In this document: piece by piece, positions 723-36,103 of the stretch
Numbering within the stretch: the stretch's first letter is position 1
How the letters are laid out: each line of letters starts with the position of its first letter
Assembly: GCA_964374125.1 (NCBI GenBank)
Contig: CAYJXL010000003.1
Span: forward strand, 1 to 40,539
Source of the DNA: Candidatus Woesearchaeota archaeon
Lineage (GTDB): Archaea; Nanobdellota; Nanobdellia; SCGC-AAA011-G17; UBA489
Length of the DNA stretch: 40,539 bases
Reading direction: 5' to 3'
The notes under the pieces: generated by a model
Seen by the model: only the letters and a program-made list of their open reading frames with translations
What the model was told of the DNA's origin: nothing
Database searches by the model: none
Position numbers and translations under genes: made by a program

Positions 723-804
723 ACAATAACAAAGAATAAGGCTCTTTTTAAATATTCTTCTTAGGCATAGAAACAAATATAAAACAAAAGCAGTGATAAG
801 ACAT

Positions 805-1380
805 ATGCAAGCAGTCCTCATAGGCGTTTCGGACAGAACAGCGTTATGGCGTCACGGCAAACTCAAGGAAGAGGAATACGGAAAGTTCATCCACGCGTAT
901 GCTCGATTCACGGCAGATCATTTTGATAACATCATTGTAACACCTGACGATGGAGTCTATACTGATATTGCACTGGAGTTCGGACGCCTGAAGAACGTCA
1001 AACCGATTGCGTACTATCCAGATCGGGATGCTTTTTATGGCATTCGTCATATTGAACCAAACTTTCCCAGTTATGAGATTCGACCGATTGGAGGGGACTG
1101 GTATACATTGAATGCGGACTTGACGAAGCAAGCGCTTGTTGTTATTTGCTTAGGGTTCAGCCCTGGCGTTTTGATTGAGCTTGCGTTCATCAAATATCAT
1201 CAGACCTATGGCGGAAGGAAAGATCCGCGACTCAAGAGCATTCACTGCTTCATTGATGAACGATGCATCAAGGAACGGCTGCCTGGAACGTTTCATGAGC
1301 AGATCCAGAATCTGTATTACTACTCGAGCCTTGAGGAGCTTGATCGATTGCTTCAGAAATCTTTGCCGAATCTCCGGTAA
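805..1380 (+). CDS. Hypothetical protein; possibly a divergent LOG/SLOG-type Rossmann fold
   Basis: Long ORF. ATG at 805 lies 26 nt downstream of the TATA-like CAAATATAAAAC (773-784). The pattern TPDDGVYTDIALEFG...IAYYP...ALVVICLGFSPGVLIE loosely resembles the LOG-family GGxxG...PGGxGT layout. The fold assignment is weak. Confidence 0.5.
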   Translation: MQAVLIGVSDRTALWRHGKLKEEEYGKFIHAYARFTADHFDNIIVTPDDGVYTDIALEFGRLKNVKPIAYYPDRDAFYGIRHIEPNFPSYEIRPIGGDWYTLNADLTKQALVVICLGFSPGVLIELAFIKYHQTYGGRKDPRLKSIHCFIDERCIKERLPGTFHEQIQNLYYYSSLEELDRLLQKSLPNLR

Positions 1381-10987: not shown

Positions 10988-11929
10988 CTATAATAACTTT
11001 TCGGAGTGTAGGAATGACGCAAAGAGCTGTTGAACATCTGCAGGTGACCTCGTACTTGCGAGACTTGCGCGCAGTTTAGCGCTATTGCCTAAACCTCTTG
11101 TAAAGTCCATTGCGCGTTCCTTCATGATCTTTATTCGCGGACACTTTACAAGCTCGAGGTATTCCTGCAGCAGCTGCAGCTTCTCTTCTCTTGTTTGTTG
11201 TATGATTTCTCCCGTCTCAAAATAGTGCAGGATCTGCTTGAAGATCCATGGGTTGCTCTTCGCGGCACGTCCAATCATGACGTAATCGCATTTTGTGTAT
11301 TCAAGCATTTCCTTTGCTTTTTCTGGTGAGATGACATCGCCATTACCGATGACAGGAATGCTGATGGCCTGTTTTATTTCCTTGATGACGTCCCAATTTG
11401 CTTTTCCTGAATAACCTTGCGCTTGCGTTCTTCCGTGAATGGCGATTGCGGCAGCGCCTGCCTTCTCGAGCATCTTGACAATTTCAAGCGCCTCGACTTT
11501 CTTGAATCCTGAACGCATTTTTACTGTTATTGGTTTTTGGATGCTTGCGACGAGCGTCGCGATAATTTCGTATAACCTCTCTTTTTCCTGAAGCAAGGCA
11601 GAACCATAACCTTGCTGAACGATTTTTTTTGAAGGACAGCCGCAGTTGAGGTCGATGATATCAAAACTCTTTTCAAGCTTTCTTGCCGCTTCAACGAGAA
11701 TATCGGAGTTTCTGCCAAAGAGCTGCAAACCTACCGGCTTATCGTGTTCATTCGTCTTCGCAAGTTCTAGTGTTTTCTTGTTTTCACGAACGATCGCAAG
11801 CGATGAGAGCTGCTCTGTGTACGCCAGTGATGATCCATATCTTCGACAGAGCAACCTGAATGGGAGATCGGTCACTTCAGCCATTGGCGCCAGAATAAGC
11901 TTATTTTTTAGCTTTGGGAAGCTTTTCAT
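10988..11929 (-). CDS. dus: tRNA-dihydrouridine synthase
   Basis: Reads MKSFPKLKNKLILAPMAEVTDLPFRLLCRRYG...NCGCP...AIHGRT (Dus family) from the Met at 11929. The upstream 21 codons overlap the preceding gene. Confidence 0.85.
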   Translation of the reverse strand: MKSFPKLKNKLILAPMAEVTDLPFRLLCRRYGSSLAYTEQLSSLAIVRENKKTLELAKTNEHDKPVGLQLFGRNSDILVEAARKLEKSFDIIDLNCGCPSKKIVQQGYGSALLQEKERLYEIIATLVASIQKPITVKMRSGFKKVEALEIVKMLEKAGAAAIAIHGRTQAQGYSGKANWDVIKEIKQAISIPVIGNGDVISPEKAKEMLEYTKCDYVMIGRAAKSNPWIFKQILHYFETGEIIQQTREEKLQLLQEYLELVKCPRIKIMKERAMDFTRGLGNSAKLRASLASTRSPADVQQLFASFLHSEKLL

Positions 11930-12227
11930 TCTTGTTCTTTGAAGACGTCCCGGTTGCCTTGTACTCCTCGACAACCTTCTTGAAGGCTTCAACCTGTCTT
12001 TGAGTTAGCATGCCGGTGCGGATATAATGCGACTTGATGCTTCTGAGGAACTGGTTTTCATCGTACCATTTCTTGTCAATATCGAGCAGACTGCGATAGA
12101 ATGCGTTGCTGATGGGCTTATCGAAGTCCTTCATTTCGCAGTCCTTGCAGATGGGAAATTGACGGGCTGATAACATGAGCACCATGTTCTTCTTGCAGAT
12201 GACGCATCGCTGCTTGAATTTTGCCAT
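11901..12227 (-). CDS. Zinc-ribbon protein, hypothetical
   Basis: CVIC...CKDC motif followed by a basic tail. Overlaps the dus start, so the two look translationally coupled. Confidence 0.5.
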   Translation of the reverse strand: MAKFKQRCVICKKNMVLMLSARQFPICKDCEMKDFDKPISNAFYRSLLDIDKKWYDENQFLRSIKSHYIRTGMLTQRQVEAFKKVVEEYKATGTSSKNKNEKLPKAKK

Positions 12228-13919: not shown

Positions 13920-13992
13920 TGGGCCTGCTCGGATTCGAACCGAGGACCTCAACCGTGTGAAGGTTGCGTCATAGCCGCTAGACTACAGGCCC
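13920..13992 (-). tRNA. tRNA-Val (CAC), no intron
   Basis: GGGCCUG/CAGGCCC acceptor, anticodon stem CAACC/GGUUG with loop UUCACAC, T arm CUCGG-UUCGAAU-CCGAG, discriminator A. No encoded CCA. Confidence 0.9.
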
Positions 13993-15045
13993 GCAGGTGA
14001 TTATATTATCCTTGACCGTGAACTTCACTGGCAGAAACTGTTCGATGAGCCATATATTAGTTTTTGCATGCGTACTTAGATGAGGAATCGCAATCTTGCA
14101 TTCTTTTCCGCTTAAAGCCATGTACACGAGAAGCTGGTCTGCCATGTATTCATCGACGGCGCAATTCATGCGCATTTGCGCTAACAATCCTTTGGCTGCT
14201 TCCTGCCCAACAGCTTCGCTTGCTTTATTTCTTTCGCCTAGCGCGTCCCATGCTATGATGCAGTTTTCGTAGACTGCCTTCAATAGTATTCCACAGCCTG
14301 GATTTAGTGTTTGTTGATATTCCTCAACAATGGAAATTGGCTGATTGATACTGATCGTTTTCTCGGCACTTTCACGGATTCTTTCGCAAACGCGCTTTTT
14401 TCGCAGATCAGAACTCGCAACAACAACGCCCTCGATGCCCAACAATGCTCCGCGTTCAAGCAAGGTTGCACTGCTTGTTTCTTTCACTTTTTTCACGAGA
14501 ACATTGACGTCGGCGCCACCCTTTGGATAAAAACCGTGCCTCTTCGTTGCAATGTGCATCTGAAAGCCAAGCTTCTTCATCATGGGCACAAGTACCTCTT
14601 GAATGTACAGGATATTTGGCGCATGCGTTCCAAATGTTCCGCCGCCAGTAACATGAATGCTGACATCAGATGCCCCATAGAAAGATGGCAATGCCAAGCA
14701 CTGCAGCAGAAGCCCAACGCTGCCAGCGGTTTCGACGTGGACATTTAATTCATTCTTATATTCTGACCTCGGGTGAAAGATAATTTCCGATGAGCCGAGT
14801 TTTGCTCCTTCCAATGAACCATTGCAAAATTCTTTCACGGCCTCAATTGCGCGGAGATGCTGCGTTCGCAAGCCGCTTTCTTTTCTTTGGCTTCGAATGC
14901 TATAGACTCGGACTGGCTTTTGCGCGATACATGAAAGGGCGACGCTCAAGCGGACAATAGAACCGCCCCCCTCCAAGTGATTACCGGGAATTGCCAGCAT
15001 GGACGTTCCTTCGCTTATGGAGCTTAAAATGCTTCCTATAGCCAT
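13978..15045 (-). CDS. rtcA: RNA 3'-terminal phosphate cyclase
   Basis: LEGGGSIVRLSVALSCIAQKPVRVYSIRSQRKESGLRTQHL and overall colinearity with RtcA. An alternative start is the Met at 15000. The last five codons overlap tRNA-Val. Confidence 0.85.
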   Translation of the reverse strand: MAIGSILSSISEGTSMLAIPGNHLEGGGSIVRLSVALSCIAQKPVRVYSIRSQRKESGLRTQHLRAIEAVKEFCNGSLEGAKLGSSEIIFHPRSEYKNELNVHVETAGSVGLLLQCLALPSFYGASDVSIHVTGGGTFGTHAPNILYIQEVLVPMMKKLGFQMHIATKRHGFYPKGGADVNVLVKKVKETSSATLLERGALLGIEGVVVASSDLRKKRVCERIRESAEKTISINQPISIVEEYQQTLNPGCGILLKAVYENCIIAWDALGERNKASEAVGQEAAKGLLAQMRMNCAVDEYMADQLLVYMALSGKECKIAIPHLSTHAKTNIWLIEQFLPVKFTVKDNIITCGPVV

Positions 15046-17735: not shown

Positions 17736-17786
17736 GGCAGCACAGTATCCGAAATTGATTCTTTTATCTAAAGAACGATCGCAACC

Positions 17787-17796
17787 CTTATATAAC
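17787..17796 (+). promoter_or_regulatory. TATA box CTTATATAAC for tRNA-Ser
   Basis: Centre is 26 nt upstream of tRNA position 1 (17818). Confidence 0.55.
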
Positions 17797-17817
17797 ATTT
17801 AGACTAATCTGCGTCAA

Positions 17818-17956
17818 GCCGAGGTCGCATAACCTGGTATTGCGCAGGATTGCTAAAGGTTATGTAAACATCCTGTGTCCGCAAGGACGTGTGGGTTCAA
17901 AAGCACTTTCAGAGCCGGTCCAAGACCAGCGGTGACTGATCGTCCCACCCTCGGCG
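17818..17956 (+). tRNA. tRNA-Ser (GCU) with two introns (37/38, 14 nt; T-loop about 59/60, 41 nt)
   Basis: Exons 17818-17855, 17870-17901 and 17943-17956. Acceptor GCCGAGG/CCUCGGC plus G73; D arm GCAU-AACCUGGUA-UUGC; anticodon stem CAGGA/UCCUG with loop UUGCUAA; long variable arm GUCC-GCAA-GGAC; T arm GUGGG-UUCAAA[intron]U-CCCAC. An oligo-T tract follows (17957-17965). Confidence 0.8.
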
Positions 17957-17967
17957 TTCTTTTTCGA

Positions 17968-18762
17968 TTATGGAAGAACGCGCCCAACCGCAGCGATGTA
18001 TTGTTGCACCTTCTGGAGATTAAGGTCATCATCACCGTATGCTTGGCTCCGTTTATCTCGCAACCCGCTTTCAGCATCAATAGAAAAGTCTGATGTTCCT
18101 ATTTTTGCTTTGAGCTCTTCAACACGAGATTCAACATTTTCCCCAGTAAACCCACCAGCAAAGCCGATAGTAGTTTGCGGCATCGCTTCGTGAAGGTTAC
18201 CGTAAAGTGCAACAGCTTCGTTTGTATTGAACGCAAGACCGCTCCCCATTGACGGATCGATGAGCACGTACGTTACATAGTCGCTATAGCAGACAACCTG
18301 CTTTGCAGCATTATCAGCGCTTGTTTTTCCTAGCATAGAGCGAGACACTTGCAGAACAATCTTCATCTTTGGAAAGGTTTCTTTTATTTTCTTCACTTCA
18401 TCAAGTGGAGGCCAAACAACATTCAATTGTAATGCTCGACAAAGATCCTCTTGATAGATACCCTCGAAGAGGCTTCTGATCTGGTCAGCGAGTGTATCAT
18501 GATCGCGAGAATTATAGTGCATCATCGTCAAGGCTTTACCTCGAGCACTCGTAACGAGCGACTCAAGCTGATTCATTTTTGGATACCTTCGATTGGCGAC
18601 CTCTTGGTTTCTAAGTGTCTTTACGGAAACGAGGTAACCAATCATGGGGAGATGAGACGAGTTCATAGAATATTCTGCTCTATCAAAAGCATGAAGAACA
18701 GCTTCAACCTCTGCGTTAGTTGCAACGCCTGTTACGCCGACGTAAGGTTTTGCACGAACCAT
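17968..18762 (-). CDS. TIM-barrel protein resembling phosphoribosylanthranilate isomerase (TrpF-like)
   Basis: VGVTGV near the N-terminus. LIDPSMGSG...IGFAGGFTGENV...SIDAESGLRD parallels the TrpF llD..gGtG...lAGGl.peNV...DvsSGvE blocks. Confidence 0.5.
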   Translation of the reverse strand: MVRAKPYVGVTGVATNAEVEAVLHAFDRAEYSMNSSHLPMIGYLVSVKTLRNQEVANRRYPKMNQLESLVTSARGKALTMMHYNSRDHDTLADQIRSLFEGIYQEDLCRALQLNVVWPPLDEVKKIKETFPKMKIVLQVSRSMLGKTSADNAAKQVVCYSDYVTYVLIDPSMGSGLAFNTNEAVALYGNLHEAMPQTTIGFAGGFTGENVESRVEELKAKIGTSDFSIDAESGLRDKRSQAYGDDDLNLQKVQQYIAAVGRVLP

Positions 18763-36001: not shown

Positions 36002-36103
36002 CGGGCCCAGTGGGATTTGAACCCACGACCCTCTGGTTTCTCACTCGGTGTTAAGAGCTTCATCCTTTTTGTCAGATGCTCCACCAAGCTGAGCTATGAG
36101 CCC
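36002..36103 (-). tRNA. tRNA-Lys (CUU) with two 14-nt introns flanking a 5-nt anticodon micro-exon
   Basis: Minus-strand exons 36103-36071, 36056-36052 (UCUUA) and 36037-36002. Acceptor GGGCUCA/UGGGCCC (one G:U), D arm GCUC-AGCUUGGUG-GAGC, anticodon stem UCUGA/CCAGA (A31:C39 mismatch), loop CUCUUAA, T arm GUGGG-UUCAAAU-CCCAC, G73. Confidence 0.75.

Follow-up and report, generated by a model that had tools for sequence, protein, structure and literature searches.

Positions 17818-17956 (+) of contig CAYJXL010000003.1 very probably encode a functional tRNA-Ser(GCU) in a Woesearchaeota-like DPANN archaeon, the gene being split by two introns of the bulge-helix-bulge (BHB) type, one in the anticodon loop and one in the T-loop. 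The window analysed here is the entire contig, 40,539 nt long with a GC content of 44.7%. Sequence comparison directly supports the boundaries of exons and introns, the cloverleaf, the orthology to uninterrupted genes, and a clade-wide T-loop intron between positions 59 and 60 (59/60) together with its BHB; the enzymes, the chemistry and the expression of the gene we infer from established knowledge of archaeal tRNA splicing.

Removal of 17856-17869 and 17902-17942 from the interval leaves an 84-nt class II tRNA, which ARAGORN calls tRNA-Ser(gct). With only the second segment deleted in silico, ARAGORN -i recovers tRNA-Ser(gct) with a 14-nt intron in the anticodon loop. The spliced product has a 7-bp acceptor stem, a 5-bp anticodon stem (CAGGA/TCCTG), a 7-nt anticodon loop with U33 and the anticodon GCU, a 5-bp T-stem (GTGGG/CCCAC) and the two features expected of a class II tRNA-Ser, namely a long variable arm (U-GUCC-GCAA-GGAC-G) and the discriminator G73 at 17956. 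After splicing the T-loop reads TTCAAAT, as it does in all uninterrupted relatives. A sequence-only reading of the locus had described all stems as Watson-Crick, which holds for every stem except the D-stem, where three Watson-Crick pairs are accompanied by a U.U that the reading did not mention. The TATA box upstream and the oligo-T tract behind the 3′ end that it named are both in place, the latter directly after G73 (Table 1). A/T-rich boxes of the same kind precede the other three tRNA genes of the window and stand at about -34 to -26 in orthologous loci, and T-runs lie behind the tRNA 3′ end in most orthologues. Two short open reading frames (ORFs) cover the locus, 17853-18080(-) and 17875-18093(+). 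They had been dismissed as spurious and we concur: a Pfam search with both gave no match, and they overlap each other as well as a 264-residue gene at 17968-18762(-).

The junctions are fixed by comparison with orthologues. A degenerate D-arm/anticodon pattern derived from exon 1 matched 120 loci in a scan of genomes, and ARAGORN called a tRNA over the match at 112 of them; nearly all of these are ordinary tRNA-Ser(gct) genes of 84-89 nt, and the roughly two dozen sequences displayed end in G. Against the uninterrupted tRNA-Ser(GCU) gene of a Woesearchaeota metagenome-assembled genome (MAG; locus L022), the spliced product is identical at 78 of 84 positions without a gap, and against that of a Nanoarchaeia MAG (L089) at 76/84, again gap-free. 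Exon 1 is identical to both genes at all 38 positions (38/38). The differences are confined to the variable arm and a single T-stem pair; among the six that separate the product from L022, the T-stem change gives a G.U. Since the uninterrupted genes match across both junctions without a gap, both splice junctions are correct to the base, and the gene model put forward from the sequence alone stands in its isotype, its anticodon, and the positions and lengths of both introns.

On each strand of a BHB, a 4-nt segment of the central helix runs into a 3-nt bulge, and the RNA is cut behind the second bulge base. We refer to the central helix as H and to the helices flanking the bulges on the exon and intron sides as h and h′. 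To follow the T-loop intron beyond the window, we scanned metagenomes with a pattern comprising the 5′ part of the tRNA and the T-loop TTCAAA followed by a base other than T, leaving the 3′ end of the intron unconstrained. The resulting family holds 20 distinct sequences: the window copy, two MAG loci (L037 and L103) and 17 distinct sequences from 22 metagenome contigs. In all 20 the insert sits exactly at 59/60; it is 30-88 nt long, with interiors that mostly cannot be aligned with one another. Throughout the family h is the T-stem, H joins U54-A57 to the four bases preceding the last two intron bases, and both bulges are 3 nt, the 5′ bulge being A58-A59↓i1 (arrows mark splice sites) and the 3′ bulge always two intron bases plus U60. 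The remainder of the intron always forms a hairpin abutting H. The intronic strand of H reads UGAA in 16 of the 20, UGAG in one, UGAU in two (the window copy and L142) and GGAA in one, so that 17 members have all four central-helix pairs, the UGAG member by way of a G.U. In five of them (L126, L128, L132, L143 and L147) the full hBHBh′ is the unconstrained minimum free energy (MFE) structure. This geometry is the same as that at the canonical 37/38 site, because both arms consist of a 5-bp stem and a 7-nt loop. We conclude, on the sequence evidence, that the 59/60 intron of tRNA-Ser(GCU) is old and that its copies across a broad Woesearchaeota-like clade are orthologous.

In the window copy, H pairs UUCA (17896-17899) with UGAU (17937-17940), giving 3 bp and a U.U. 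The bulges are in the correct register, A-A↓A at 17900-17902 on the 5′ side and C-G↓U at 17941-17943 on the 3′ side. The h′ pairs CACU (17904-17907) with GGUG (17931-17934), with a possible further G-C pair and a bulged A, and encloses the hairpin GGUC-CAA-GACC. The closest homologues of this intron are those of L128 and L142, with which it has AGCACT[T/A]TCAGAGC... in common. In an alignment of T-arm plus intron for the closest subfamily (the window copy and nine relatives), the BHB is paired in 93.8% of cells, compared with 36-51% in slid controls; compensatory changes occur only in the exonic T-stem.

The anticodon-loop intron follows the same plan in reduced form. Its 14 nt divide into one bulge nucleotide, a 7-nt loop, the 4-nt intronic strand of H (GTAA) and two bulge nucleotides. 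H pairs UUGC (17850-17853) with GUAA (17864-17867) and is followed by the 3-nt bulge A-C-A38 beside the anticodon stem; this fold is 0.2 kcal/mol less stable than the MFE structure. The 3′ bulge and the 4-bp helix are thus canonical, and the 5′ splice site lies inside a 10-nt loop, which is the hBH type. Across 11 orthologues with introns of 13-15 nt, H is paired in 100% of cells, its intronic strand being GUAA or GCAG. The T-loop bulges are in register and the same geometry occurs in 19 other sequences, but in the window copy neither intron fully satisfies the strict BHB definition and both elements count as relaxed. Relaxed BHBs are a recognised subclass (PMC4090602), and most of the 59/60 orthologues carry the strict motif.

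Standard tools pass over the gene. On the unspliced window, ARAGORN made a single call, a tRNA-Val at 13920-13992, and missed the tRNA-Ser(GCU) locus. Rfam at gathering thresholds missed it as well, and reported the tRNA-Val and an intron-bearing tRNA at 36002-36103; with the threshold relaxed to E<=10 on unspliced 17780-17990, it gave nothing but a chance match to a CRISPR repeat at 13 bits. We scanned the window by removing every segment of 10-130 nt (10-120 nt in a relaxed version) whose ends have minimal BHB geometry and passing the product to ARAGORN. The strict scan (12,329 candidates) returned tRNA-Ser(GCU) as the only new gene, and the relaxed scan (75,304 candidates) additionally resolved 36002-36103 as a tRNA-Lys(CUU) with two 14-nt introns. 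A census of strict BHB-like motifs, tried as a route to further multi-intron genes in the window, returned about 200 matches per strand (198 on the plus strand) and was set aside as too unspecific.

Several observations weigh against a functional, doubly spliced gene. The relaxed scan made three tRNA calls in six dinucleotide-shuffled windows, or about 0.5 false calls per window, and is for this reason a discovery tool and not decisive; the comparative evidence carries the argument. The T-loop BHB of the window copy is relaxed, with a U.U in its central helix, and its conformer folds at -14.7 kcal/mol against -17.7 kcal/mol for the MFE. Intron 1 has no h′ within it, and its h is the anticodon stem. 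For the closest 59/60 subfamily, RNAalifold favours an intron-internal helix, ACUUUCA/UGAAAGU, that rivals the BHB: the 5′ part of the intron (CACUUUCA) repeats the T-loop bases UUCA and can pair with the 3′ end of the intron (UGAAAG) and U60. We regard this helix as specific to the subfamily, since the wider 59/60 family lacks it, and the modelling suggests that the precursor probably has alternative folds. Genes for EndA and RtcB were not found in the 40-kb window, which has only RtcA. Our view of the genome is likewise 40 kb, and a second, intact tRNA-Ser(GCU) may lie elsewhere.

These points bear on three other explanations. The locus might be a decaying pseudogene whose 41-nt T-loop insert is never removed, with AGY codons read by an intact gene elsewhere, a reading to which the imperfect BHB (the central U.U, a conformer other than the MFE) and the view limited to one contig lend some support. 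Yet all exon positions are intact and the differences to orthologues are compensatory, the promoter-like box and the terminator are retained, and the same UGAU variant recurs in L142. The interrupted architecture, moreover, is found in 20 distinct sequences that keep the BHB signature while the intron interiors diverge completely, so that decay appears improbable to us. Still less probable is that the T-loop insert was left behind by a mobile or integrative element, as an att-type scar or what remains of a miniature element, and is not spliced by EndA; any removal would then proceed by some other mechanism. It is true that tRNA genes are frequent integration targets, that 11-12 nt of the tRNA 3′ end are repeated 55-90 nt downstream in L044 and L089, and that the 59/60 introns are very diverse in sequence. 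Neither a target-site duplication nor a terminal inverted repeat is present at 17902/17942, however, and 30-88 nt is too short for a self-splicing intron. The insert always stands at 59/60, where 3-nt bulges and a 4-bp helix with the T-loop UUCA make up the geometry of an EndA substrate. Such geometry, kept over divergent interiors, fits a spliced intron, whereas a scar would not be expected to show it.

A chance cloverleaf, arising from the free choice of two deletions in a region that is coding or plainly intergenic, deserves almost no credence. The calls in shuffled windows and the existence of the two ORFs speak for it, but a product 93% identical to a real tRNA-Ser(GCU), with no gap at either junction, effectively refutes it through orthology. 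Its first 38 nt fit a D-arm/anticodon pattern common to about 120 archaeal tRNA-Ser(GCU) genes, and the ORFs, without a Pfam match, overlap each other and the gene at 17968-18762(-). A functional tRNA-Ser(GCU) gene with two spliced introns thus remains the reading that we favour.

For that gene, transcription from the TATA-like box (about -26) to the oligo-T tract would yield a precursor of about 139 nt. EndA would cut after the second base of each 3-nt bulge, at A37↓a and c↓A38 for intron 1 and at A59↓a and g↓U60 for intron 2, and an RtcB-type ligase would join the three exons. Trimming of the ends and addition of CCA would then give the 84-nt class II tRNA with its long variable arm and the G73 expected for serine.

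Intron 1 is complementary to the D-arm of its own tRNA. The sequence-only reading had noted seven nucleotides, GGTTATG/CATAACC; the match is real and extends to 9 bp, GCAUAACCU with AGGUUAUGU. The helix comprises eight Watson-Crick pairs and one G.U (p=0.002 against shuffled introns) and forms part of the predicted MFE structure of the pre-tRNA. In the 11 tRNA-Ser orthologues, the D-arm/intron helix is paired in 90.9% of cells, compared with 21-41% after a shift of the partner strand by 1-3 columns, and two pairs covary: position 13 is U-A in seven and C-G in four, and position 16 is C-G in five, U-A in two and U.G in one. The covariation score exceeds those of all 500 shuffles, a control that is uncorrected for relatedness. 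The 37/38 mini-introns of two other tRNA genes on the contig behave alike, that of tRNA-Lys forming 8 bp with D-loop positions 15-22 (p=0.010) and that of the initiator tRNA 9 bp with positions 8-16 (p=0.008), whereas non-cognate combinations of intron and D-arm on the contig score only 3-5. The helix always starts at intron base 2, which is one base past the 5′ splice site and the point at which a complete BHB would have its h′, and in the alternative fold predicted for Ser and Lys, A37↓i1 lies in a small bulge between two helices.

On this modelling, the 37/38 introns of 13-14 nt in this DPANN lineage, too short for an outer helix of their own, would borrow the 5′ strand of the D-arm as partner. 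An 8-9-bp helix would form before cleavage and dissolve after it, and splicing would be tied to a long-range alternative fold of the pre-tRNA. It is conceivable, though we hold it doubtful, that the mini-introns use the D-arm strand in this way as the missing BHB helix, giving a D-arm-templated splice site; tentatively, the pairing may instead hold the precursor in an alternative fold until splicing. Two points tell against a role at the RNA level: the pairing is weak or absent in tRNA-Ser of L131 and in the initiator tRNA of L131 and L132, and it could be kept by quasi-palindrome correction of the DNA and not by selection on the RNA. Functional pairing of intron and exon in pre-tRNA has precedents, in anticodon-intron pairing and in the box C/D guide intron of euryarchaeal pre-tRNA-Trp, which likewise pairs with exon bases of its own precursor. 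The case here differs in that the partner is the 5′ strand of the D-arm and the D-loop, the 13-14-nt intron is too short for box C/D, and no modification target is apparent. A literature search found no description of such intron/D-arm pairing, although the library searched was incomplete and this is absence of evidence only.

Two further ideas were discarded on inspection. One would make the D-arm/intron helix one side of a different, complete BHB, but its other bulge would then fall in the D-arm and no outer helix forms; a box C/D guide role for either intron is contradicted by the absence of a C box and by the shortness of the introns. Beyond the mini-introns, longer 37/38 introns of other archaea contain perfect complements of 7-8 nt to the 3′ half of the D-arm (positions 19-27), as in Nitrosopumilus tRNA-Met (L009, L092 and L109), where ACTCTAAC is complementary to GTTAGAGT. 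Such complements also occur in two tRNA-Ser genes, L103 (CTATACC/GGTATAG) and L052 (CAATACC/GGTATTG), which differ from each other in both strands of the match.

Of the four tRNA genes on the contig, three are interrupted, with two, two and six introns (Table 1). The six belong to the initiator tRNA-Met(CAU), and four of them have a perfect 4-bp central helix. The spliced 75-mer is called tRNA-Met by ARAGORN and carries A1-U72 and GGG/CCC in the anticodon stem. It matches the uninterrupted L145 gene at 71/75 positions without a gap, all four differences lying within the acceptor and T stems, at position 7, the T-stem pair 52-62 and position 65. One of the six introns sits at 59/60 (3036-3008, minus strand), which bears out the suggestion that the T-loop is a recurrent insertion site, one that was already documented. 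The tRNA-Lys(CUU) gene is misread as tRNA-Val(aac) by plain ARAGORN -i.

Table 1. Coordinates of the tRNA-Ser(GCU) locus and of the other interrupted tRNA genes in the window.
Feature	Positions	Strand	Description
TATA-like box TTATATAA	17788-17795	+	Centred 26.5 nt upstream of tRNA position 1; putative promoter
tRNA-Ser exon 1	17818-17855	+	Positions 1-37: acceptor 5′ strand, D-arm, anticodon stem 5′ strand, loop UUGCUA with anticodon GCU; ARAGORN and orthologues
D-arm segment GCATAACCT	17827-17835	+	Positions 10 to 17a; complementary to intron 1 bases 2-10 (17857-17865, AGGTTATGT)
tRNA-Ser intron 1, AAGGTTATGTAAAC	17856-17869	+	14 nt, canonical 37/38 site; ARAGORN -i
tRNA-Ser exon 2	17870-17901	+	Positions 38-59: anticodon stem 3′ strand, variable arm GUCC-GCAA-GGAC, T-stem 5′ strand, T-loop UUCAAA; ARAGORN and alignment
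tRNA-Ser intron 2	17902-17942	+	41 nt, T-loop, between positions 59 and 60; folding and 19 other distinct sequences
tRNA-Ser exon 3	17943-17956	+	Position 60, T-stem 3′ strand, acceptor 3′ strand, G73; CCA not encoded
Oligo-T TTCTTTTT	17957-17964	+	Directly after G73; likely archaeal transcription stop
Initiator tRNA-Met(CAU)	3196-2994	minus	203 nt, six BHB-type introns
Initiator intron, 7/8	3189-3158	minus	32 nt
Initiator intron, D-loop	3142-3126	minus	17 nt
Initiator intron, 28/29	3117-3096	minus	22 nt
Initiator intron, 37/38	3086-3074	minus	13 nt
Initiator intron, 44/45	3066-3052	minus	15 nt
Initiator intron, 59/60	3036-3008	minus	29 nt
tRNA-Lys(CUU)	36103-36002	minus	Reported by Rfam as a tRNA with one 28-nt insertion; in fact two 14-nt introns
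tRNA-Lys intron, 30/31	36072-36059	minus	H = CAUC/GAUG, h with the D-stem 3′ strand
tRNA-Lys intron, 37/38	about 36050-36037	minus	

Related loci show comparable fragmentation. The initiator gene of L134, at 758-974(+), has six introns, at 7/8, the D-loop, 29/30, 37/38, about 44/45 and 53/54; that of L132 (minus strand, 138 nt) has three, and the tRNA-Lys(CUU) gene of L141 (minus strand, 167 nt) has at least three. In many related loci tRNA-Ser(GCU) and the initiator gene are neighbours, no more than about 1.5 kb apart.

The tRNA-Ser(GCU) genes of the clade occur without an intron, with the 59/60 intron alone, or with an additional intron at 68/69. The last of these, in the 3′ acceptor strand, is a third intron in L132 and L142; in L142 it reads CCT↓ATAAAGG...TTTAGGTGAG↓CGGCG, with H formed by CACC/GGUG. 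A close relative of L132, L145, lacks the 68/69 intron, which points to a recent gain or loss. In L105 (Woesearchaeota Bin_534), whose gene ARAGORN misreads, there is a 12-nt intron at 37/38, and a second insert, of about 45 nt, separates the variable arm from the T-stem in place of one in the T-loop. In L044 and L089, the terminal 11-12 nt of the gene (CCACCCGCGGCG in L044, CAGCCTCGGCG in L089) recur 55-90 nt downstream, ahead of a T-run; these repeats could have been left by an integrated element, as an att-type scar, or could reflect another intron close to the 3′ end.

The gene content of the contig is archaeal and includes S8e, TrmB regulators, an ATP-dependent DNA ligase, RNase HII, RtcA and a class II aminoacyl-tRNA synthetase. 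The gene for RtcA, the RNA 3′-terminal phosphate cyclase (13978-15045, minus strand), adjoins the tRNA-Val gene, and about 2 kb beyond it lies a gene for a Dus-family dihydrouridine synthase (10988-11992, minus strand); both enzymes act on RNA or tRNA. The metallophosphoesterase encoded beside tRNA-Ser(GCU) has no relative above 53% identity, and its named relatives are from Woesearchaeota, Pacearchaeota and Nanoarchaeota. On the contigs of these relatives no tRNA-Ser was found beside the phosphoesterase gene, and synteny is therefore not conserved.

Non-canonical and multiple BHB introns of crenarchaeal tRNA genes were reportedly described by Marck and Grosjean in 2003, by Sugahara and co-workers in 2007 and 2008, and by Fujishima and co-workers in 2010. 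Genes with two or three introns and introns at non-canonical sites are well documented in Crenarchaeota, above all in Thermoproteales (PMC4090602, PMC8450103), and the documented sites include 59/60 and 30/31 (PMC4090602). The locus described here resembles these genes in that introns bounded by BHB-type motifs, and probably protein-spliced, stand at 37/38 and at a second site, relaxed motifs (hBH, HBh′) are common, and standard predictors miss the gene. It differs in its DPANN (Woesearchaeota-like) host and in a 59/60 intron that is orthologous over a wide clade, in contrast to the recent burst of related introns in the crenarchaeal case; complementarity between mini-intron and D-arm is not described in the crenarchaeal intron sources that we found. 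Ectopic and multiple introns with BHB-like junctions, including introns in the T-arm, are likewise known from nuclear or nucleomorph tRNA genes of Cyanidioschyzon merolae and cryptophytes (PMC3728597, PMC9602550, PMC4090602), but these are eukaryotic genes served by another endonuclease complex, and the likeness implies no orthology.

Within DPANN, Kaneta et al. reported that several lineages, Woesearchaeota and Pacearchaeota among them, have an α4 EndA that carries an additional L3 loop, together with tRNA genes that are disrupted markedly more often, and took incomplete tRNA sets to indicate undiscovered disrupted genes in need of manual curation (PMC5829648); ARMAN-2 has an ε2 EndA (PMC3239211, PMC5829648). 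The present locus, from the same superphylum, is a gene of the kind predicted (PMC5829648). The DPANN papers give summary statistics from tRNAscan-SE 2.0, and we found neither the 59/60 family of tRNA-Ser(GCU) nor genes with more than three introns described in them. The tRNAscan-SE 2.0 paper speaks of "up to three" introns in archaeal tRNA genes (PMC8450103), a number exceeded by the six in the initiator gene of this contig; our literature search found no archaeal tRNA gene with more than three, in an incomplete library and hence as absence of evidence.

As a kind, tRNA genes with BHB introns are not new: they are known from archaea, and disrupted tRNA genes had been predicted for DPANN. What the locus adds is a 59/60 intron that extends across a clade, a covarying pairing with the D-arm, and exceptionally fragmented tRNA genes nearby. 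Annotations of DPANN MAGs often seem to lack some tRNAs, and at least part of that gap is a failure of detection, as ARAGORN and Rfam both miss this locus; the signature TTCAAA, intron, then TGAA-NN-T offers a means of recovering such genes. The tRNA-Ser(GCU) family can be used to study the gain and loss of introns and their co-evolution with the substrate specificity of EndA. The pairing of mini-intron and D-arm, undescribed as far as we found, is directly testable and, if a D-arm-templated splice site should prove true, would represent a new way to build an EndA substrate or to time the folding of a tRNA.

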